From an uncultured Chloroflexia bacterium (lineage in GTDB: Bacteria; Chloroflexota; Dehalococcoidia; SZUA-161), in assembly GCA_963827295.1 (NCBI GenBank), contig CAWHAI010000022.1:2324-66323 (forward strand): 64,000 nt of DNA, read 5' to 3'. The notes under the pieces are model-generated. The model was not told the DNA's origin and ran no database searches. It saw nothing but the letters and a program-made list of their open reading frames with translations. A program made the position numbers and the translations under genes. Shown in pieces: positions 15,862 to 44,822 of this stretch; the stretch's first letter is position 1, and each line of letters starts with the position of its first letter.

Positions 15862-17359
<1,498 letters not shown>

Positions 17360-18812: not shown

Positions 18813-18889
18813 GGGCGGGTAGCTCAGTTGGCTAGAGCACTACTCTGATAAAGTAGGGGTCGAAGGTTCGAATCCTTCTCCGCCCACCA
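18813..18889 (+). tRNA. tRNA-Ile (anticodon GAT), CCA encoded
   Basis: Cloverleaf folded by hand: GGGCGGG/TCCGCCC acceptor stem, CTGATAA anticodon loop, GGTTCGAATCC T-arm. Confidence 0.92.
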
Positions 18890-19606: not shown

Positions 19607-19680
19607 TCGGGGAGACAGGATTTGAACCTGCGACCCCTTGCACCCCATGCAAGTGCGCTACCAGGCTGCGCCACTCCCCG
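19607..19680 (-). tRNA. tRNA-Pro (anticodon GGG)
   Basis: CGGGGAG acceptor stem, ATGGGGT anticodon loop, GGTTCAAATCC T-arm. CCA not encoded. Confidence 0.88.
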
Positions 19681-27572: not shown

Positions 27573-29067
27573 ATGGTTGAAGGTGTTTCCAAAACCCCGC
27601 CGCTGCATGTACTCATGGCCTCACCGGAGATTACTCCTCTAGCCAAGACCGGCGGTCTTGGCGATGTGCTAGGTTCTCTACCCAGAGCTCTCGAACGACT
27701 TGGACTTCGCCTCTCCCTTATCATGCCTGCGTACCGCTCCGTCCTTAATTCTGGGTTCCCCCTGGAGGATACGGGCATAGGCTTCCCCGTCCTGGTATCT
27801 CAATCGCATGGAAGAAGGAAGACTACTGAAGACAAAGACAGGAGGTGCTATCTCCATTTATCTCATCCGTGCCGACCAGTACTTCGACCGGGATAGCCTT
27901 TATGGTACGCCAGACGGGGACTATGCCGATAACGCCGAGCGGTTCGTATTCTTCGCCCGAGCCATTCTTGAAGTCTTAAAGTTGGATCCACCTGCGATTC
28001 TCCATGTACACGACTGGCAGTCGGCTCCCGCTGTAGCCTTTCTCAAGGCCCAACCTCATCTCTATCCAGAGCTTTCCTCTATGAAGACCATCTTGACAGT
28101 ACACAACCTAGGATACCAAGGCCTTTTTGATTATGTGGATTGGCATCTCCTAAACCTCGAAGAGCGTTTCTTCACTCCCCCTTATCTTGAGTTTCATGGG
28201 AGAATCAACTTTCTCAAAGGAGGTCTCGTCTTCGCTGACAAGATTACCACAGTGAGCCCCACTTATGCCCAAGAAATCAAGACTGCCGAGCAAGGCTTTG
28301 GGCTGGACGGGGTCTTCCGAAAGCGGGCGAAGGACTTAGTTGGTATTCTCAACGGGGCTGATTATGAAGTCTGGGATCCTGAGACCGATCCGTTGATCTA
28401 CCAAACATATGGTTCCGAGAATCTTTCGGGGAAGAGATTTTGCAAATCCGATCTACAAAAGGTTTTTCGCCTTCACATTGATCCCGATATTCCTCTCATT
28501 GGCATGGTCTCGCGCCTAACATCACAGAAGGGCTTTGACCTTTTGGAAGAGGCAATGGATGATTTGCTCTCTCGGGGGACTCAGTTCGTTCTCCTCGGGA
28601 CAGGAGACAGGCGCTACGAGCAAATTTTTAGCAAGATGCCTGAGCGATACCCCGGGCGAACTGCGGTACAAATTGACTTCGACGAGTCTCTGGCCCACAA
28701 GATTATTGCAGGATCAGATCTGCTACTCATGCCTTCCCGCTACGAGCCAAGCGGCCTTACTCAGCTATACAGTCTCCGATACGGTACTATTCCCATCGTG
28801 AGAGCCACGGGCGGCCTAAGAGACACTATCAGCGAGTTTGATCCGAAGACAGGGAAGGGGAACGGCTTTCTCTTCGTTCCCTACGAGGTTCCCGCGCTTT
28901 TACTTGCTTTGGATCGGGCTTTGAACTTGCTGCGTCAGAAGAAAGAGTGGTCAACGATAATGAAGAATGCAATGGCTGCCGATTTCTCCTGGGCTCGCTC
29001 CGCCCGATTGTATGCTGACCTTTATCAAGAGCTTGCGGAGCAACCTTCATTCAGAGACATAGCCTGA
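27573..29067 (+). CDS. glgA: glycogen synthase (frame break ~27800)
   Basis: EITPLAKTGGLGDV in the first piece. HVHDWQSA, TVSPTYAQE, SRLTSQKG and PSRYEPSGLTQLY in the second. Confidence 0.9.
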
Positions 29068-30491: not shown

Positions 30492-32448
30492 ATGGCCGAC
30501 AAAAAGAGCATAGACCCAGTAGTAGTCGAAATGCTGAAGAAGGCGGAAGCCGAGGGCGTTTCTACGGCTTTCAAACGTGCTGATGAAACCAAACCCTGTC
30601 CTATAGGACATGAAGGGAATTGCTGTAAACATTGCTTTATGGGGCCTTGCCGCCTGACGGGCAAGACAACGGTGGGCATCTGCGGTGCCACCAAGTCGAC
30701 CGTCTCGGCCAGGAACATGGCTCGTGGTGTCGCCGGTGGTGCGGCTGCCCACTCCGACCACGGTCGTGGTATGGCCATGACACTGCTGGCTGCTGCTACA
30801 GGCGAAGCGCCGGACTACTGTGTGAAGGATGTGAGGAAGCTGTATAGGGTGGCCGGTTACCTGGGTGTCCCTGTGGAGGGTCGGCAGATAAATGATGTTG
30901 CCATAGATGTGGCCAAGACTGCCCTGGGCGAGTTTGGCAAGCAAAACGGCGAATTGATTTATATAAACAGAGCTCCCCCCAAGCGTCAGGCAATTTGGCG
31001 CAAGCTGGGCGTTGTGCCCCGTGGCATTGACCGCGAAATTGTGGAGACCCTGCACCGCACCAGCATAGGTGTCGACCAGGATGCTGAGCATATCCTGGAT
31101 CATTCTGTACGGACTGCTCTGGCTGATGGCTGGGGCGGCTCCATGCTCAGCACCGACATCAGCGACATACTCTTCGGCACTCCCGGCCCGATAGCTGCGG
31201 GATCCAACTTCGGCGTGCTCCGAGAGGACGAGGTAAACGTCGTGATACATGGCCACGAGCCCACTCTTTCCGAGTTAATCGTGGCAGCAGCCAGCGACCC
31301 AGAGATTATCAATTACGCCAAGTCTAAGGGAGCCAAGGGTGTGAATTTGGCGGGTATCTGCTGCACTGCCAACGAAGTCCTGATGAGACAGGGCGTGCCT
31401 CTGCTGGGCAACTTCCTGTCTCAGGAGCTGTCTGTTCTCACCGGCGCAGTTGATGCGATGGTGGTGGATATCCAGTGCATCATGCAGGGTCTGGTTGAAG
31501 TCGCTAAGAACTACCATACCAAGATAATTACCACCTCACCCAAGGCAAGGATCGAGGGTGCGACCCACATCGAGTTCGAAGAGCATAAGGCTATGGAGAT
31601 CGCCAAGACAATCCTTCGCATGGCTATCGACAATTATCCCAAGCGGGGCAAGGTGCAATATCCCCGACATCCAGGACCACCTGGTCGCCGGCTTCTCCCA
31701 TGAGTATATTGCGTATATGTTGGGTGGAACCCTGCGCGAGTCCTTCCGTCCGCTGAACGATGCCATTATGGCCGGACGCATACGCGGCGCTGCGGGCGTG
31801 GTTGGCTGCAATAACCCCAGGGTGACCATGGATGACCCGCACCTTTACACTGTTCAAGAATTGATTAAGAACGATATACTTGTGGTTACCACAGGATGCA
31901 ACGCCATAGCCTGCGCCAAGGCGGGCCTGCTCACTCCTGAGGTCATGGAGCAGTGCGGGCCTGGGCTCAAGGAGATCTGCCAGACCATTGGTATCCCGCC
32001 GGTGCTGCATATGGGCTCCTGCGTGGATAATACCCGTATCCTGACCGTACTTACTCAGTCTGCCTGTGAAGGCGGCCTGGGAGAGGACATCAGCGACCTG
32101 CCTGTGGCAGGGTTCGCTCCGGAATGGATGTCGGAGAAGGCGCTCACCATCGGCACTTACTTTGTAGCTTCTGGCGTGACCACCTGGATGGGCGTTGGCT
32201 CACCGGTCGCTGGCAGCCCAGAGGTTGTGAAGTTAATCACCGAGGGATACCAGAAGAAGTTCGGAGCTGCCTGGTACTTCGAGCCCGACCACAAGAAGGC
32301 TGTGAAGGATGCCATAGCTCACATCGATGGTAAGAGGAAGGCGCTCAAGCTGGTGGAGTACGACCCCAAGAAGTTTGCCCAGAGCAAGACCTATCTGCCG
32401 GGCGATTACTTCCCTGCAGAGAAACACGGCGCTTACTCGTTGAAGTAA
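30492..32448 (+). CDS. cooS: anaerobic Ni,Fe carbon monoxide dehydrogenase catalytic subunit (frame break ~31652)
   Basis: CPIGHEGNCCKHCFMGPCR (B/D clusters). C-cluster ligand contexts IHGHEP, GICCTANE, DIQCIM, GCNNPR, TTGCNA and GSCVDN are all present. Confidence 0.9.
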
Positions 32449-32642: not shown

Positions 32643-33758
32643 ATGGCTAAAACTAAAAAAGGCAGAGCAGCAGTCTATCACGGGTTGGGTCATCCTATGG
32701 AGATCAGGGAATATCCCGTGCCGGAACCCGAGCCGGGCGCCATCCTGGTCAAAATAAGAAGAGCCGATATCTGTGGGTCTGACCTCCATATGTGGCGAGG
32801 GGAAGTAGACCTCGCTGGTTGGGGACAGCCCATGCCGGTGATACTGGGGCACGAGATGGTAGGCGAAGTAGCCAAGCTGGGAGAGGGCATAACCACCGAC
32901 TCAGCAGGCCAGCCGCTGTCGCCTGGAGATAGGGTAGTCTACCGCTATTTCCTCCCCTGCGGACGATGTCACGCGTGTCTGAGAGGAGATGACGCTGCCT
33001 GCCCTGCAGCTTCTATCACTGTGGTGAACCCCTGTGAGCCACCTCCTCACTTCCGCGGGGCTTATGCAGAGTATTACTATCTCATGCCCAATCAGACTGT
33101 TTTTAAAGTGCCTGATGACCTGACCGACGAGATAGCAGCCCCTGCCAACTGCGCTCTCTCCGAGGTAATCTACGGTCTGGAGAAGATAAATCTCAGATTC
33201 GGGGAGACCGTCGCCATACAGGGTGCAGGTGGTTTGGGCATTTATGCCACCGCAGTCGCTAAGGAGATGGGCGCTGCCAAGGTAATCGTGATAGACGGCA
33301 TCGAGGAGCGGCTCAAGCTGGCGAAAGCCTTTGGTGCCGACGAGATAATCGATATGAGGGAGCTAAAGGAACCGTACGAACGCTCCGACAAATTGAAGAA
33401 GCTTACCGGGGGCTGGGGTGCTGATGTTGTGGTCGAGGTTGTGGGCTTCCCCCAGGTGATCCCTGAAGGCATAGACATGTTGGGCAAGGGGGGACGCTAT
33501 CTGGAGCTGGGCAACGTCAGCCCCTTGAAGACCTTTGAGTTAGACCCTTCCATGCTTGTGAATGACAACAAAAGCATTTTCGGGATAACACTTTACTCGG
33601 CTGAGGCTCTGAAGAAAGCCCTCGATTTCCTGAGCCGAACCAAGGATAAATACCCCTTCGATAAAATACTATGTTGCTCCTATCCTTTGGAGAAAATAGA
33701 CAAAGCGTTTGACGACCAGAATAAAGGGCTTGCTACCAGGACCAGTATAATTCCTTAG
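32643..33758 (+). CDS. zinc-dependent alcohol dehydrogenase family (MDR) oxidoreductase
   Basis: [17 protein letters not shown], structural-zinc [23 protein letters not shown] Rossmann motif. Confidence 0.85.
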
Positions 33759-34556: not shown

Positions 34557-35062
34557 TTACTTAACCTCGACAGTGGCGCCGGCTGCGGTGAGCTTCTCCT
34601 TGAGCGTGGCGGCCTCGGCCTTGTTCACGCCCTCTTTAACCGTCTTGGGAGCAGCTTCAACCAACTCCTTGGCTTCCTTCAAGCCCAGAGTTGTCACCTC
34701 GCGCACTGCCTTGATTACGCTGATCTTGTTAGCGCCGACCTCTTTGAGTATCACGGTAAATTCAGTCTGTTCCTCAACAGGGGCAGCGGCAGGGGCACCA
34801 GCGGCAGCGCCAGCCACGGCAGCAGCGGGGCAGCGGCCATCATGGGTACGGCGGCGCTGACCCCGAACACCTCCTCGAGGGCTTTGACCAGCTCTGACAG
34901 CTCGATTACAGTCATTTCCTTTATAGCAGCAATGACTTCATCCTTGGTCAGCGTCTTCGTTTCCTTCTTGGCAGCAGGAGCGCGCTTCTTGTGGGCTTTC
35001 TCCTCCTCTGCTGCTACCGCAGCGGCCTCTTCCTTCTTCTCGGCGGCATCCTCATGAGACAT
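34557..35062 (-). CDS. rplL: 50S ribosomal protein L7/L12 (frame break in Ala/Pro hinge at G-run 34827-34830; atypical N-terminal extension)
   Basis: [34 protein letters not shown], a hinge, then [35 protein letters not shown]. The ATG at 35062 has a GGGAGGG RBS. Confidence 0.9.
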
Positions 35063-35588
35063 TTGCTATCCCTCCCATTTGTTGAATTCTAGCGTTTAAT
35101 ACTACGCAAAGGCCACGCAAGTTGGCCGTGAGTACATTGTGCAGTGAATATATAGGGCTCTGCATCACCCCGAGTAACTTGGCTCTCAGAACTTCTATCG
35201 GCGGCATAGTGGCAAGGCTGGTTATTTCCGCGGAGCTGAGCGCCCTGACATCGAGAATCCCACCTTTAATACTGAGGGCAGTCTTAGAGGTACGCGCATA
35301 GGCAGTCAAGGTTTTCGCCAGTTGTGCGGCATCCCCCTTACAAAAGGCAAGCGCTATCGGGCCCTGAAGGTATTGGGAAAGCCCTGGTTTACCTGTCTTT
35401 TCAGCGGCAAATTTGGCCAGGGTGTTTTTGACCACATGAAATTCGGCGTTTACCTCACGAAGCTGGCGTCGCAGTTGCGACATCTCAGCAACCGAGAGCC
35501 CTCGGTATTCGGCGGCGATTATGAACTTATTTTGAGAGAGCAGTTCAGTTAATTGCTCCAAAATCTCAGCCTTTTTTTGTGTAGGCAT
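35052..35588 (-). CDS. rplJ: 50S ribosomal protein L10
   Basis: 178 aa. [20 protein letters not shown]...VVKNTL. Confidence 0.92.
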
Positions 35589-35740
35589 GTCCTTTATCCT
35601 CCTACAAAAAGAGAGTCCTTATGCCTGCAACATAAGGACTACTCATCCAAATTTAAATTGCTTCGGCAGGCATAAGATTAAGCCATTAAGGCACCCGCTG
35701 TCTTCAGCGTATTCAGTTGTTGTATTAGTCTATATCAAAA
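35589..35740 (-). ncRNA. structured rplJ 5' leader (candidate L10-leader autoregulatory element)
   Basis: ~185-nt untranslated gap before rplJ. It contains a 10-bp hairpin (35614..35640, agtccttatg/cataaggact). The family assignment is not verified. Confidence 0.3.
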
Positions 35741-35775
35741 CCCCCGATTATGCAAGTCCGGGGACACTACCCTTT

Positions 35776-36954
35776 TTAGCGGCCTGGGACACCGAAGATG
35801 CCCATGCTGCACATGAAGGTGCCGGGATGCCCTCCTTGGTTATGAGCTATCCCCAATTGGACATTCTTGAGCTGACGCGATGGCTCCTGGGCCTTGCCCT
35901 GAATCTGCTTGTATATCTCGTAAACCTCTCTGACACCGCTGGCACCTACAGGGTGGCCAAATGACTTCAGGCCGCCGCCAGCGTTGAAGGCCACCTCACC
36001 ATTCAGCGCGAACGTACCGGCTTCGATATCGTACTTGGCTTTTCCCCTCTCGCAGAAGCCCATAGCCTCATAGCACATGAGCTCAGCGATGGAGAAGCAG
36101 TCATGGCACTCCACTATATCTATCTCTTTGCGAGGGTTCTTGATTCCAGCCTGTTGATATGTCTGAATGGTTGCCCTATAGGTTTCTTCCCAGTGTGCCC
36201 AATCGTAGGTTGTCATCATCTTGCCGCAGCCTGGTCCTGCTGCATTGCCCAAAGCCTTAACAGTGATATAGTCCTTCCTATACTTTTTAGCGTCCTCGGC
36301 GCGGCAGAGGATAGCGGCCGCTGCGCCGTCAGTTACGCCGCAGCAATCGAAGAGCCCCAGAGGCCACGCGATTATAGGGGCATTCAGTGCCTGATCTAGC
36401 GTTATCTCACGGCGTAGGTGAGCCTTGGGATTGCGGGCGCCGTTATAATGGCTCTTCACCGAGATCATGGCCAGGTGCTTCTTCTCAGCCCCGTATTGGG
36501 CGAAATACCTGGTGGCTGCCAGGGCGTAGCGTCCCGGCGGAGTTGCCTGGATGCCAAACACAGGGTGTATGCCCCCCATCGGCTCTCCGGAGCCGAGGCC
36601 TCCGACGCCGCGGTCTTTAGTCTTTTCAAAGCCAACGCAAAGTACAAGGTCATAAGCCTTAGAGATGAGTGCGTAAGTGGCCCCTCTGATTGTCTCCAGC
36701 CCTGTGCCGCAGAGGTTCTCCACCCTAACGATGGGTATATAGTCCAGCTTAAGAGGGTAAGCCAAGCTCTGGCCTCCGGCGAACCCCAATGTGCCAGACC
36801 AAGCTGCCTGAACGTCTTTGAGTTCAACTCCTGCATCCTCGAGAGCCTCAGAGGTCGCTTCGACAACAAGGTCCCATGCACTGGAATCCCAGCGCTCTCC
36901 AAATTTGCTGCAGCCCATGCCTACTATGGCAACTTTATCTTTAATGCTTTCCAT
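35776..36954 (-). CDS. thiolase-domain protein, SCP-x/archaeal acetoacetyl-CoA thiolase type
   Basis: 392 aa intact. VAIVGMGCSKFG, nucleophile context VENLCGTGLE, GHPVGASG, AHNQGG. Confidence 0.85.
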   Translation of the reverse strand: MESIKDKVAIVGMGCSKFGERWDSSAWDLVVEATSEALEDAGVELKDVQAAWSGTLGFAGGQSLAYPLKLDYIPIVRVENLCGTGLETIRGATYALISKAYDLVLCVGFEKTKDRGVGGLGSGEPMGGIHPVFGIQATPPGRYALAATRYFAQYGAEKKHLAMISVKSHYNGARNPKAHLRREITLDQALNAPIIAWPLGLFDCCGVTDGAAAAILCRAEDAKKYRKDYITVKALGNAAGPGCGKMMTTYDWAHWEETYRATIQTYQQAGIKNPRKEIDIVECHDCFSIAELMCYEAMGFCERGKAKYDIEAGTFALNGEVAFNAGGGLKSFGHPVGASGVREVYEIYKQIQGKAQEPSRQLKNVQLGIAHNQGGHPGTFMCSMGIFGVPGR

Positions 36955-36966
36955 GCTTCACCTTCC

Positions 36967-38383
36967 TTAGGCCCCCCTCAGAGGACGGCACTTCCAGTAG
37001 TAGTTGCGAATGCCTCGTTCGCTGTGCATCCATCTGAAGGTAAGCTCTACCGGCATCTCGTATTCTATCTTATCGGGGTCGCGGTCTGTCATCTGAGCGT
37101 AGAATCTCCCACCCTCGTCGAAGTCTATAATACATAGTATGATGGGTGAATCGAGGCTTGGGCCTAGGTTGTCTTTGCTGTAAGTGAACAGCTTGCCTCT
37201 TCTATCAGCAAGGCGGATCTCCTCGAACTTGTCCCTGCTCTGGCAATACATGCAAATCCGCTGGGGAGGGAAGTTGATGTTGCCACAGGACAAACACTTG
37301 CCGCCGCGGCAGTTGATATTCCACCTGCGGTCCCGCCATGAAATGGTGGCAGCTGATTGATTCTCCCAGAAAGTGTATCCCTGAATGATACCTCGATAGC
37401 GGAGGTACTTATCATAACTCATTAAAGGTAGCTTCGAATCCAGATGATATTTTATGCCCCGCCATGCTTTCAATTTCTTTACCCCTTTGGTGATGGTTAG
37501 GATGAAAGCATCGGCCCCATCTCCGTAGTTAGCGAGCAGCAACTTGTCCTCAGCTTTTGCCTCCTCCAGAGCACCGACCAGCATCATAAGAGCATAGGCA
37601 CTGCCAGTATTGCCCACATTGGAGAAAAAGCTCTCTTGAACTTGGGTCTTGTAATCAAAACCGAGATTTCTTGCTAATTGCTGATGTCTTCTGGCGTCGA
37701 AAGCGTAGAGGACAGCCTTGGTGAAATCGGCAGGTTTCAGCCCATTTTCACTAATGATAGCTTTGACAGCCTCTGCGGTGTTATCCAGATAGCCATGCTC
37801 GACGATAAAGCGGTCTTCCCAAAATCTGACAAAGGTGTCGGTGTCCAATCGCCACAGGTCCATAATATCGTTATAGTGAGTAGTGGCTTCCATCAATGCT
37901 TGCGATCAGTTCAGCGCTGCCCAGGAGTATGGCGGCAGACCCGTCTCCGAATGCCTGCTCGTATTCGGTGGAAGGCTGCCCCATGCGGCAATCCGCAGCA
38001 ACTACCAAGACCTTCTTTGCCGAGCCGGCAGCAATGGCATCCATGGCCGCTCTCATGGCAATGGTAGCAGACCTTAAGGAGTTGGTGAAGTCGGCGGTTC
38101 TGATGTTACGCTTGAGGTCGAGCGCTTCTGCAACGATGCCGGCACATTGTTTCTCTTTATAAGGGGTTGTAGTGGAAGCTAGAAATAGAGCGTCGACCTC
38201 GTCTCGGTTGAGACCCTGTAGACAATTGTTCCCGGCTTCCACTGCCATGGTGATGGTGTCCTCATCGAAGTTGGCGACCGACCTTTCTCCTCCGACAGGC
38301 AGCCCGCCCCACGTCAACCAAGGCATGTCACGACTCAGCCTGTAAATAGGTATATAAGCGCCGTAGGAAACAATCCCTACCAT
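36967..38383 (-). CDS. HMG-CoA-synthase-like domain fused to DUF35 (zinc ribbon + OB fold); frame break ~37897
   Basis: N-terminal MVGIVSYGAYIPIYRL, FDEDTITMAVEA, GDGSAAILLG, VGNTGSAYALMML. C-terminal CLSCGNINFPPQRICMYCQS...GKLFTYS...YAQMTD. Canonical catalytic Glu/Cys/His positions appear substituted (see finding). Confidence 0.7.
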
Positions 38384-38450
38384 TTGGCTCTCCTTTCACG
38401 CAGTCGTGTCTAACTATCTGCCCTTACTGGAAATGGGATAAAGTCGTATA

Positions 38451-39164
38451 CTAAGAGGTAGTCAGGGAAAGAGTTGGTGTTAGATCGAGTTTGATTCCTG
38501 GCCCCATAGAGGTCGTTAGTGTGGCAGTTTTTATATATTGACCTTTAGCGCCGCTGGGCTTTGCCTTAACCACAGCTTCGACCAGAGCAGCCAGGTTTTC
38601 CAGTAGCTTTTTTTCATCGAAGCTGACCTTGCCTAACGGTGTATGAATAATAGCAGTCTTATCCAGTTTGAATTCTACACGGCCTTTACGAGAGTCAGCG
38701 ATAACCCGTGGCAGGTCGGCAGCCTGGGAAATAGTCCCCGACTTTGGATTGGGCATGAGCCCCTTCCGTCCCAGGATCTTGCCCAGTTTACCGATCCTGG
38801 GCATCATGTCTGGAGTAGCGATTGCTATATCGAATTCCAGCCAGCCCTCTTCTATCTTCTTGATGAGCTCATCGCTGCCAAAAGAGTCAGCTCCAGCATC
38901 CTGGGCGATTTTCTGGGCCTCGCCCTGGGCAAAGACCAGAACTCGCACCGGTTTGCCCAAGCCGTTTGGCAATAGAGCCACACCACGAACCTGTTGGTCA
39001 GCATGACGTGGGTCAACACCCATACGCAGATGGAGCTCAACCGTCTCATCGAATTTAGCGAAGGATGTTTTCTTAGCCAAGCTAATCGCTTCCTCCGGAC
39101 TATACGTCTTGGCACTATCTATAAACTTAGTTGCTTCCAGATATTTCTTACCGTGTTTCACCAT
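38451..39164 (-). CDS. rplA: 50S ribosomal protein L1
   Basis: [11 protein letters not shown]...[27 protein letters not shown] at 39164 with an AGGAG RBS. The longer track ORF overlaps rplK. Confidence 0.93.
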
Positions 39165-41919: not shown

Positions 41920-41991
41920 AGCCCACAACCAGATTTGAACTGGTGACCCCCTTCTTACCAAGAAGGTGCTCTACCGCTGAGCTATGTGGGC
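41920..41991 (-). tRNA. tRNA-Thr (anticodon GGT)
   Basis: GCCCACA acceptor stem, TTGGTAA anticodon loop, folded by hand. Confidence 0.88.
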
Positions 41992-41999
41992 GCGCTGCA

Positions 42000-42087
42000 T
42001 GGTGGAGGGGGCAGGATTCGAACCTGCGTAGCCATTTCAGGCGACAGATTTACAGTCTGTTGGTATTAGCCTCTCACCCACCCCTCC
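42000..42087 (-). tRNA. tRNA-Tyr (anticodon GTA), long variable arm, CCA encoded
   Basis: GGAGGGG acceptor stem, CTGTAAA anticodon loop, ~17-nt variable arm. Confidence 0.88.
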
Positions 42088-42100
42088 GGCCTCTGCCCGG

Positions 42101-42172
42101 AGCCCGAGAGCGGATTCGAACCGCTACCCTACCGATTACAAATCGGTTGCGCTGCCGTTGCGCCACTCGGGC
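42101..42172 (-). tRNA. tRNA-Thr (anticodon TGT)
   Basis: GCCCGAG acceptor stem, TTTGTAA anticodon loop. Confidence 0.88.
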
Positions 42173-42241: not shown

Positions 42242-43633
42242 TCAAGGTTTTTTGTATCTCCAAACCGTTCCCTGGGGGTGTCCTCAAGGGTGACACCAAG
42301 TCGCTTGAGCTTATCGCGAATCTCGTCGGCGCGCCGCCATTCTTTCTTTCTCCGCATCTCGTCTCGTTCTTTGATAGTCGGTGCTATGACCTCGTTAATG
42401 TTAACGCTCTCATCGACAACTTGTAAGTAATATAGCGCTCTTGCGCAGAATTGAGTTCAGCCCAGCACTCTAGCAAGCTCCCGCAATGTCTTTTGAGCTT
42501 CAACTATATTCATACCTTCATCACGGCCGCGATTAATTTCCCGTGCCAGGTCGAAAAGAGCAGCTACGGCCTGCGGGGCTGTTGAAGTCATCGTCCATAG
42601 CCTCGATAAATCTCGACGATAAGGTTGTGGGTCTACTGTATTAGCTGTGGTTTCCTGAACATCAATGTAGGCTGTGTTGCGCAGCCTCTCCAGCCCCTTT
42701 TCAGTCGCTGTCCAGGTTCTCATCGGAGTAGGTTATGGGGCTGCGGTAATGAGAGCTGAGCACCCAGAGCCTGATGGCATCAGCACCATATTTCTCTAGA
42801 ACCTCCCTGATGCCTATCAGCTTCCCCGTAGACTTGCTCATCTTCTCCTCGCCCAATTGCATCAGCCCATTGTGCAGCCAGTAGCGAACAAAAGGTTTGA
42901 CGCCAGTGAAGGACTCAGACTGGGCGATCTCATTTTCGTGATGTGGGAAGATGAGGTCTTGCCCTCCGCCGTGGATATCCAGAGTCTGCCCCAGGTATTT
43001 GAGCGACATGGCAGTGCACTCGATATGCCAGCCTGGCCTACCCTGCCCCCAGGGGCTCTGCCACTGCGGCTCGCCTGGCTTGGCCGCCTTCCACAAGGTG
43101 AAATCCAGAGGATGTTCCTTGGCTTGGCCTACTTCAATGCGGGCACCTGCCATCATGCCGTCCAGAGTGCGATGGCTGAGCTTGCCGTAGTCGGGGTCGC
43201 TCTTCACCCGAAAATAAACATCGCCTCCCGCCTCATAGGCATGCCCTTTTCGTATCAAACCCTCGATGACCTCAAGCATCTTGGGTATTTCCTCAGTGGC
43301 CCGGGGGTAGACATCAGCCCGTTTTATATTAAGGGCATCCATGTCAGCAAAATATTGATCGATGAATTTCTGGGCTAGTTCCCTAGCTGAGATGCCAGAC
43401 TCGTTGGCACGGGCTATGATTTTATCATCTATGTCGGTGAAGTTCTGCACGTACTTTACTTTGTAGCCACGAAATTCAAGATAACGCCTGATAGTATCGA
43501 AGACGATGTAGCTCATGGCATGGCCGAGATGGCTGGGAGCATAAGGGGTGACCCCACAGACATACATCTTGACTGTATCGCTTTGGGGAATGAAATCCTC
43601 TTTGCGGCCGGACAGGGTATTATATATCTTCAT
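42242..43633 (-). CDS. cysS: cysteine--tRNA ligase (frame break ~42714, in-frame TGA 42457-42459, frame break at G-run 42274-42278)
   Basis: [16 protein letters not shown] (HIGH), KMSKS, and a C-terminus [15 protein letters not shown] recovered after restoring one C. Confidence 0.9.
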
Positions 43634-44106
43634 CAGGCTTTTTCCAGTAAAGCCACAGCATAGGCAGCGATTCCCTCTTCTCTCCCCGTGAAGCCCATGC
43701 CTTCGTTAGTGGTGGCTTTTATCCCAACCTGGCTGTCGCTGATAGACAAAGCTCGACTTATGTTCTGCTTCATCTGAGCAATAAAGGGTTGGAGAAAGGG
43801 GCGCTCCGCAATTATTGTAGCATCGATGTTGCCTACGCGCCAGCCCTGGGCCCTGAGCAAACCGCCGACGCTGTCAAGTAGAGTGATGCTGGAAATACCT
43901 TTATAGGCTGGGTCATTGGGAGGAAAGCGGCTTCCGATATCTCCCAAGGCTGCGGCGCCTAGCAGTGCATCCATTATGGCATGCACGAGGACGTCGGCAT
44001 CGCTCCAGCCCTCGAGGCCTTTGTCGAAGGGGATTTCCACGCCGCCTAGAATAAGAAGACGGCCCTTAGTTATTTGATGGGCGTCGTAGCCAATACCGAC
44101 GCGCAT
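43633..44106 (-). CDS. ispF: 2-C-methyl-D-erythritol 2,4-cyclodiphosphate synthase
   Basis: RVGIGYDAH...[11 protein letters not shown]...GDIG. Confidence 0.93.
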
Positions 44107-44822
44107 AAGGCCTCCGTGGTCGCAGGCTGCCCTGCCCCCTTCTTTTGCAAAAAGACCTCGGCCACCGCTAGGTCCTCAGGTGTGGTCACCTTTATATTAT
44201 GATAAGACCCCATGTAGACCTCAACCCTGTGACCCAGCTTTTCCACCAGCGCAGCGTCATCGGTGACCTCATCATCAGCCTGCCGATAGGCTTCCGCTAC
44301 CAAATCATAGCGAAAAACCTGGGGTGTTTGTGCAGCCCACAGGCTTTGGCGGGTCGGTGTCTGCTGGACGAAGCCGCGGCGAGATACAATCTTGATGGTA
44401 TCTTTAACTGGCACCCCAGCGATAGCAGCACCACTTTCTCGGGCTGTTATCAGCCCTCGTTCGATAAGGTCAGTACTGATACAAGGCCTAGCCCCATCGT
44501 GGATCACAACCCATTCGCAATCTATAAGCCGCCGCAGCCCTTCCTTGACCGAATCCTGACGCCTGGGCCCTCCCGGACACACAGCAATCACTTTATGCCA
44601 ATGGTGGTCCTTTATCAGCCTCCGACCTTGCTCCAGGCTCTTCTTCGCTAGCACAATAACTATCTCATCCACCAAGGAGCAATCGTTGAACACAGTTACC
44701 ACCTTGGCGAGAATGGGCTCTCCCACTAGGGTAGCAAAGACTTTGTCTATGCCACCCATTCGGCTGCTGGTGCCAGCAGCGACGATTATTACGCCGACCT
44801 TACCGCTTACTTCTTTCATCAA
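44070..44822 (-). CDS. ispD: 2-C-methyl-D-erythritol 4-phosphate cytidylyltransferase
   Basis: VIIVAAGTSSRMGG...DKVF...VIHDGARP. The 3' end overlaps ispF by 37 nt. Confidence 0.9.
   Translation of the reverse strand: MMKEVSGKVGVIIVAAGTSSRMGGIDKVFATLVGEPILAKVVTVFNDCSLVDEIVIVLAKKSLEQGRRLIKDHHWHKVIAVCPGGPRRQDSVKEGLRRLIDCEWVVIHDGARPCISTDLIERGLITARESGAAIAGVPVKDTIKIVSRRGFVQQTPTRQSLWAAQTPQVFRYDLVAEAYRQADDEVTDDAALVEKLGHRVEVYMGSYHNIKVTTPEDLAVAEVFLQKKGAGQPATTEALCASVLATTPIK

Follow-up and report, generated by a model that had tools for sequence, protein, structure and literature searches.

What can a thiolase do when its gene is paired with that of an HMG-CoA synthase relative that appears to have lost its own catalytic residues, and what is such a pair doing inside a ribosomal protein gene cluster? 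The question is raised by a stretch of 64,000 nucleotides from an uncultured Chloroflexia bacterium (GTDB lineage Dehalococcoidia; SZUA-161), positions 2,324 to 66,323 of contig CAWHAI010000022.1 in assembly GCA_963827295.1. This whole stretch is called the window, and all coordinates are given on it. Between its rplA and rplJ genes lie a gene that fuses a 3-hydroxy-3-methylglutaryl-CoA synthase (HMGCS, or HMGS)-like domain to a DUF35 module, and a thiolase gene. The pair probably encodes a thiolase complex of the bacterial "ACAT/HMGS-DUF35" type, made of two polypeptides but tripartite in function, in which a non-catalytic HMGS-fold partner accompanies a thiolase that would perform thiolysis or condensation of 3-oxoacyl-CoA. 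The features of the pair are as follows.

36967..38383, minus strand: HMGCS-like::DUF35 fusion gene, 471 aa once one extra T is removed (Pfam, PRK04262, phmmer, homologues)
38383..37871 and 37896..36967, minus strand: the two open reading frames (ORFs) as read in the window, together the split fusion gene
37378..38383, minus strand: HMGCS/KAS-III-fold domain, residues 1 to about 335 (phmmer to 6ESQ_I, AlphaFold2, Foldseek)
36970..37344, minus strand: DUF35 module, residues about 347-471, zinc ribbon plus OB fold (Pfam, 6ESQ_E)
35776..36954, minus strand: SCP-x/archaeal-type thiolase gene, 392 aa, predicted catalytic subunit (NCBIfam PRK06157, 6ESQ_A match, motifs)

An earlier note on this DNA had described an HMGCS-like::DUF35 fusion here, and the domain matches bear this out. 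Pfam recognizes ACP_syn_III and ACP_syn_III_C in the split gene, followed by zf-ChsH2 and OB_ChsH2_C, and the archaeal HMGCS equivalog PRK04262 marks the two ORFs as one gene, its positions 2-176 matching the first and 177-345 the second. Removal of a single nucleotide brings the HMGCS fold and DUF35 into one 471-aa reading frame. Aligned with the DNA of L002, a metagenome contig of 98% identity, the window shows the break to be one extra T at ~37882 (CCAC-T-ACTCAC), and not at ~37897 as had been proposed. Homologues at 93-99% identity are single unbroken 471-aa proteins, with GSHTHYND across the junction. The repaired fusion finds its best PDB match in archaeal HMGCS, 6ESQ_I (phmmer, E=1.9e-37), followed by PhlA 5M3K_A (1.6e-34), 9SKH_A and MucA 9VBO_A, with 6ESQ_E, the DUF35 chain, as the match of its last 125 residues (E=3.7e-15). 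A confident AlphaFold2 model of the whole chain, built on 61 sequences (predicted local distance difference test, pLDDT, 89.3; predicted template-modelling score, pTM, 0.91), was compared by Foldseek, which ranks 6esq_I first (TM 0.91, root-mean-square deviation 1.6 A), then PhlA and MucA. The zinc ribbon of DUF35 is formed by C363, C366, C377 and C380 (37243-37296), invariant in 61 sequences.

To judge from the alignment, the HMGCS-fold domain has lost its nucleophile and both acid/base residues. Against 6ESQ_I, E82 faces T71 (LASTTTPY; codon 38171-38173), C114 faces L103 (TNSLRSA; codon 38075-38077) and H238 faces Y226 (VLYAFD; codon 37705-37707). The register that had been read by eye is thus correct, and a domain without Glu, Cys and His agrees with the pseudo-enzyme proposed at that time. 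The tetrad Asn is kept, N270 facing N258 (codon 37609-37611), so that three of four tetrad residues are lost. A different chemistry had been offered as another possibility; the site of the Cys is taken by a leucine, with no other conserved nucleophile in its place, which speaks against it. The loss extends to the family. Among 131 full-length cluster representatives, the Glu position is T in 112/131 and the Cys position L in 96/131, while Y, P, S or A stands at the His position; E, C and H are absent from the six commonest residues at the three positions. Y226 and N258 are variable across the wider family, and N258 is kept in the window's clade.

The thiolase carries its motifs at the following sites.

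36709-36711, minus strand: thiolase Cys82 (NLC82GTG), codon checked
36097-36105, minus strand: thiolase H284-D-C286-F (HDCF), codon checked
35953-35955, minus strand: thiolase G-H334-P, codon checked

These motifs indicate that the thiolase holds the only intact active-site motif set of the pair. C82, HDCF and GHP are invariant in 75/75 partner thiolases. The protein contains Thiolase_N and Thiolase_C_1 in Pfam, passes NCBIfam PRK06157 (489 bits vs a cut-off of 403), and matches the archaeal thiolase 6ESQ_A at E=2.8e-56 and 194 bits. Its match to PhlC covers the C-terminal part only, at 70 bits. Its identification as an SCP-x/archaeal-type thiolase with a retained nucleophile context is upheld, as is the correspondence of the three parts of the pair to the subunits of the archaeal thiolase/HMGCS/DUF35 complex, since chains A, I and E of 6ESQ are best or near-best PDB matches.

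The architecture of the pair is known already, and nothing about it is unusual except where it lies. In the study of Liao et al. (Nat Commun 2026; PMC12960953), which determined the structure of MucABC, genome mining counted 1,030 bacterial HMGS/ACAT/DUF35 loci, 1,001 of them without secondary-metabolism neighbours. The pair that they expressed from P. fluorescens consists of a fused HMGS-DUF35 protein without the E-C-H-N tetrad and an ACAT with Cys, HDxF and GHx. This complex carried out acetoacetyl-CoA thiolysis only, with no HMG-CoA formed and no condensation product accumulated, and a mutant of the HDxF His was nearly inactive in acetoacetyl-CoA cleavage (PMC12960953). In the same study, MucB alone was inactive or insoluble, an archaeal quadruple tetrad mutant formed no HMG-CoA, HDxF was found lost in PhlC and MucB, and an interfacial CoA chamber was retained in all solved relatives. 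The window pair shares the fused HMGS-DUF35, the lost Glu, Cys and His, the adjacent ACAT with Cys, HDxF and GHx, and the absence of polyketide synthase or nonribosomal peptide synthetase (PKS/NRPS) neighbours, the flanks at the window locus being ribosomal protein genes, radC and a zinc-ADH-type oxidoreductase. By architecture and motif pattern it is of the same "minimal" bacterial HMGS/ACAT/DUF35 type (~1,000 loci). It differs from the P. fluorescens pair in retaining the tetrad Asn and in lying inside a ribosomal protein cluster of a Dehalococcoidia bacterium. The novelty implied by the earlier note does not hold for the type, which is largely characterised in PMC12960953 with its ~1,000 bacterial loci. 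A literature search for thiolase and HMG-CoA synthase in Dehalococcoidia turned up nothing, and papers on oestrogen degradation and archaeal fatty-acid synthase mention DUF35 pairs, not the HMGS-DUF35 fusion.

Other known systems place the pair more precisely. The archaeal thiolase/HMGCS/DUF35 complex (6ESQ) has three modules, all homologous to those of the window, and the same thiolase set of Cys, HDxF and GHx. It differs in having DUF35 as a separate chain, where the window protein has it fused, and in an HMGCS whose Glu, Cys and His are replaced in the window protein; because of this replacement, the second condensation to HMG-CoA would not be possible in the window pair. Moreover, that complex serves the mevalonate pathway, whereas the window organism encodes genes of the methylerythritol phosphate (MEP) pathway, ispF (43633-44106) and ispD (44070-44822), both confirmed in the window; a mevalonate role is unnecessary, as had been noted. 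PhlACB (P. protegens, 5M3K/5MG5) and MucABC (S. macacae, 9VBO) likewise combine a dead HMGS-like partner, a thiolase-like catalytic subunit and DUF35. However, their thiolase-like subunits are without HDxF and use small-molecule acceptors, their DUF35 is a separate chain, and their genes stand in PKS/NRPS clusters, whereas the HDCF of the window thiolase is intact. In the BbsAB benzoylsuccinyl-CoA thiolase (7PXP) and in Ltp2-ChsH2 (6OK1), CoA esters are likewise broken down by an SCP-x-type thiolase-fold enzyme that is paired with a DUF35 zinc-ribbon/OB module, and HDxF serves reversible thiolysis in BbsB. Unlike the window pair, these two systems have no HMGS-fold domain, and they act on CoA esters of aromatic or steroid compounds.

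We propose that the HMGCS-fold domain and its fused DUF35 would form a conserved, non-catalytic and obligate structural partner, as its homologues suggest. The fusion may keep the thiolase soluble and conformationally competent, and may contribute a shared CoA-binding chamber, as in the archaeal, PhlACB and MucABC complexes. The reaction would be a reversible thiolysis or Claisen condensation of 3-oxoacyl-CoA, not HMG-CoA synthesis. The most likely role would be the last reaction in a beta-oxidation-type breakdown of a short acyl chain, and it is the gene context elsewhere that points to catabolism of this kind. A thiolase cluster is present in 68/79 fusion-bearing loci, typically immediately downstream of the fusion. 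Recurrent neighbours are enoyl-CoA hydratase (25), acyl-CoA dehydrogenase (25), SDR (18), ADP-forming CoA ligase (9), CoA-transferase III (8), 3-hydroxyacyl-CoA dehydrogenase (8) and methylmalonyl-CoA mutase (5 loci). The same beta-oxidation-type neighbours are found on annotated plasmids of Novosphingobium, Azoarcus and Natrialba.

Several points weigh against this proposal. The complex with its shared chamber is taken from homologues, and the reaction may run in the catabolic or the anabolic direction. There are no other beta-oxidation genes within the 64-kb window. The biochemistry of the type is known for the P. fluorescens member only (PMC12960953), and the nearest proxies for that protein, proteobacterial plasmid copies, are just 29-35% identical to the window fusion. 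Finally, conserved polar residues around the former active site would leave room for a ligand-binding role.

The family itself is broad and well maintained. A profile search over 1.84 billion cluster representatives gave 1,088 matches at E <= 1e-30, and the best 150 of these 1,088 are nearly all full-length fusions. Members come from Dehalococcoidia, other Chloroflexota, Thermodesulfobacteriota, Nitrospinae, Binatia, Armatimonadota and Pseudomonadota, and plasmid-borne members from sphingomonads, Rhodococcus, Mycobacterium, Variovorax, Azoarcus and haloarchaea. The ASTT and S-L/T-R signature recurs in the full-length homologues of 24-35% identity that were checked among Proteobacteria, Actinobacteria and haloarchaea, whose partner thiolases retain HDCF and GHP. 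Within the window's clade, comparison with the relative L001 gives ratios of nonsynonymous to synonymous substitution rates (dN/dS) of 0.047 (HMGS-like domain), 0.023 (DUF35) and 0.028 (thiolase), and the HMGS-like domain as a whole ranges over 0.05-0.14. Such low ratios show strong purifying selection on the dead domain, which is being kept and is not decaying.

Such conservation can also be read as a sign of function at the remodelled pocket. The HMGS-like domain might have gained a ligand-binding or catalytic role, for example toward a carboxylated or bulky acyl moiety or in a second step, and the reaction would then use two sites. T71, S102, R104, R231, E189 and R191 are invariant or nearly so across homologues of 50-99% identity, the tetrad N258 is kept in the window's clade, the dN/dS of the domain is low, and the CoA chamber lies at the interface of all solved relatives (PMC12960953). 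However, an obligate structural partner is equally expected to show strong purifying selection, and K/R at 104 and D98 occur in true HMGCS and PhlA too, which makes them structural. The hydrophobic Leu without a substitute nucleophile, the variation of Y226 and N258 in the wider family, and a P. fluorescens complex that gave thiolysis only (PMC12960953) leave the two-site enzyme unlikely, even as the alternative that survives best.

The location of the pair can now be considered. On the minus strand the ORFs run tuf, rpmG, secE, nusG, rplK, rplA, the two ORFs of the fusion, the 392-aa ORF, rplJ, rplL and radC, with the following features around the pair.

38451..39164, minus strand: rplA (L1), upstream flank of the pair (ORF call and relatives' loci)
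38384..38450, minus strand: rplA-fusion spacer, 67 nt, with ribosome-binding site AAAGGAG; its 3' half is kept within the clade
36955..36966, minus strand: fusion-thiolase spacer, 12 nt, with ribosome-binding site GGAAGGTG
35742..35763, minus strand: weak hairpin CCCCG...CGGGG then TTTT, after the thiolase stop codon; seen, not conserved
35600..35725, minus strand: Ribosomal protein L10 leader RF00557, upstream of rplJ (covariance model)
35052..35588, minus strand: rplJ (L10), downstream flank of the pair (ORF call and relatives' loci)

The fusion and thiolase genes are a tightly coupled pair. The L10 leader scores 59.8 bits, above the gathering score of 44, and ends 12 nt upstream of the rplJ start. 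Because rplJ retains this leader of its own, the module falls between the rplKA unit and the rplJL unit. The earlier note had called the pair a self-contained insertion, bounded by the hairpin and T-run. Its position between rplA and rplJ and the retained leader stand; the boundary does not. The hairpin is present, and it was not called by the terminator scan and is found only in the window and the 98%-identical L002 when the intergenic regions of relatives are compared. A terminator that defines the boundary of the pair was rejected on these two grounds. In L007, L009 and L010 the L10 leader begins ~25 nt past the thiolase stop codon, and L009 and L010 carry a -10-like TGnTATACT there. No terminator was called in the rplA-fusion spacer (38384..38450) either, and the pair would probably be transcribed by read-through from rplKA or from its own promoter. 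The 3' half of this spacer conserves GACACGACTGCGNGAAAGGAGAGCCAAATG beyond the ribosome-binding site (window 38384-38430 and the equivalents in L001-L006), which could be a regulatory or processing element.

The order rplA, fusion, thiolase, rplJ is common to all relatives with a 75-99% identical fusion (L001-L004, L006-L010); the contigs L005 and L016 end within the locus, and each shows one side of this order. Synteny was surveyed more widely with an RplA profile on metagenome contigs, of which 59 were informative. In 35/59, rplA is adjacent to rplJ with a gap of 150-430 nt; thiolase modules follow rplA in 11/59, plus two further short contigs, and other content in 13/59. The cargo varies. 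L052 and L091 carry acyl-CoA dehydrogenase, fusion and thiolase at the ribosomal site, and tandem fusion-plus-thiolase pairs follow rplA in L062 (545-6053), L100 (5037-10868) and L102 (975-6806), both copies of L062 lying between rplA and rplJ. In L103 (1255-2821), L107 (3039-4668) and L136 (836-2417), a second, divergent SCP-x thiolase and a separate 137-aa ORF (cluster c46) come right after rplA; the size of this ORF is consistent with a putative stand-alone DUF35. A fusion-plus-thiolase pair and rplJ come after the c46 ORF in L107 and L136, and L103 is without a fusion gene. The rplA|rplJ gap thus holds a thiolase island of variable content in one Dehalococcoidia lineage. Descent of all ribosomal-site copies from one insertion was considered as well. 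In a weakly resolved neighbour-joining tree, the window clade L001-L010 is monophyletic and the ribosomal-site copies L032, L052 and L062 fall elsewhere, so that either the site was used repeatedly, by capture or paralogue replacement, or the tree is poorly resolved.

Other features of the window lie outside the pair. A zinc-ADH/MDR-family oxidoreductase gene (32643-33758, plus strand) adjoins radC, where the 93%-related genome L001 has different genes. MDR enzymes are enoyl-CoA reductases in some pathways independent of acyl carrier protein (ACP). No link between this oxidoreductase and the thiolase pair was shown. Three consecutive tRNA genes (41920-42172, minus strand) stand directly upstream of tuf. 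A complete 16S rRNA gene (15863-17357, plus strand) is followed downstream only by tRNAs at 18813-18886 and 19607-19680, and no 23S rRNA match was found anywhere in the window, which looks like an unlinked rRNA arrangement.

The ribosomal site invites an anabolic reading, in which the pair would condense acyl-CoA for ACP-independent primer or fatty-acid-type synthesis and would be placed there so that its expression tracks growth. Thiolases are reversible enzymes. The rplA-rplJ placement is conserved in the clade with 75-99% identical fusions, no beta-oxidation genes are nearby in the window, and a part in fatty-acid synthesis has been put forward for archaeal ketothiolase/DUF35 pairs (bioRxiv 10.1101/2024.07.05.601840). 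However, acyl-CoA dehydrogenase, enoyl-CoA hydratase and 3-hydroxyacyl-CoA dehydrogenase genes adjoin the paralogues elsewhere and some ribosomal-site copies, the window locus has no coupled reductase or dehydratase, and the P. fluorescens complex accumulated no condensation product (PMC12960953). We consider this reading improbable. Equally doubtful is the bolder idea of a growth-coupled housekeeping enzyme, co-transcribed with rplKA, whose pocket (T71, S102-L103-R104, Y226, R231, E189, R191) would bind the acyl part of the substrate or an effector; it would be an unrecognised two-site enzyme, and the recurrent capture of the gap would reflect selection for ribosome-linked expression.

The catabolic thiolase complex that we favour presupposes an intact fusion gene, and the frame break could be taken to mean the opposite, namely a decaying insertion whose frameshift is real and whose fusion gene is a pseudogene in this organism. 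The break is indeed present in the given sequence, and one distant copy (L042) is likewise split into two ORFs. However, the same alignment to L002 reveals a 1-nt insertion in tuf (41062) and indels of 2 nt (34826) and 3 nt (34805) in rplL. Because these are essential genes, which a living cell would not have broken, the frame break at ~37882 is almost certainly a sequencing or assembly error. The intact 471 aa of all close relatives, a fusion dN/dS of about 0.05, the absence of lesions in the fusion gene besides the extra T, and an hcp gene split in the same window make a pseudogene very unlikely. A programmed frameshift was also considered and rejected, since the relatives are all in frame and similar indels occur in tuf and rplL. 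The window appears to derive from an indel-prone assembly, and frame breaks in it are to be distrusted.

Side observations touch on the same matter. The split hcp occupies two ORFs in 30492-32448; the cysS ORF (42701-43633) has only 310 aa, where the product of the relative L001 has 495 aa, and the glgA ORF (27808-29067) matches just the later part of the starch-synthase model. In L042 (6001-7557), a metagenome-assembled genome labelled Dehalococcoides mccartyi BE2012_46_32, a species label that looks doubtful, the fusion is split into ORFs of 187 and 300 aa with no thiolase directly downstream; true pseudogenization or a further assembly error could account for this copy.

A Friedel-Crafts C-acyltransferase of the PhlACB/MucABC type, acting on a small-molecule acceptor, has in its favour that PhlA, 9SKH and MucA, likewise without catalytic residues, are the next-best sequence and fold matches of the HMGS-like domain. 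It is just as unlikely as the pseudogene: the window thiolase retains the HDCF that PhlC and MucB lost, it resembles PhlC over the C-terminal part only and far less than the archaeal thiolase (70 bits vs 194), DUF35 is fused here and not a separate subunit, and the context is ribosomal here and of the beta-oxidation type in paralogues, without PKS/NRPS neighbours. A genuine mevalonate thiolase/HMG-CoA synthase complex can hardly be right, although the best HMM and PDB matches are archaeal HMGCS and JGI and NCBI give many homologues that name, because the alignment with Glu, Cys and His all replaced already contradicts it, the summed PRK04262 score of the two halves (131.9 + 91.3 bits) is below the 244-bit cut-off, the archaeal quadruple tetrad mutant made no HMG-CoA (PMC12960953), and ispD and ispF of the MEP pathway are in the window.

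These source annotations deserve attention of their own. Many dead fusions are called "hydroxymethylglutaryl-CoA synthase", for example P0002, P0003, P0048, P0074 and P0103, which, on the residues they carry, is a systematic misannotation; fusions so named are predicted to be unable to perform HMG-CoA synthase chemistry. Such labels could make Dehalococcoidia and other anaerobes look as if they had a mevalonate pathway, and could bring false pathways of this kind into metabolic reconstructions. That a thiolase island should lie within a ribosomal gene cluster which ranks among the most conserved is an unusual, if minor, curiosity of genome organisation. New here are this variable rplA|rplJ island, a Dehalococcoidia member of the type with the tetrad Asn kept, and evidence for a maintained catabolic complex. 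The ACAT/HMGS-DUF35 type was treated as an "evolutionary intermediate" in PMC12960953. Its broad distribution, the purifying selection on the dead domain and the beta-oxidation contexts suggest instead that it is a maintained thiolase complex of CoA-ester catabolism.

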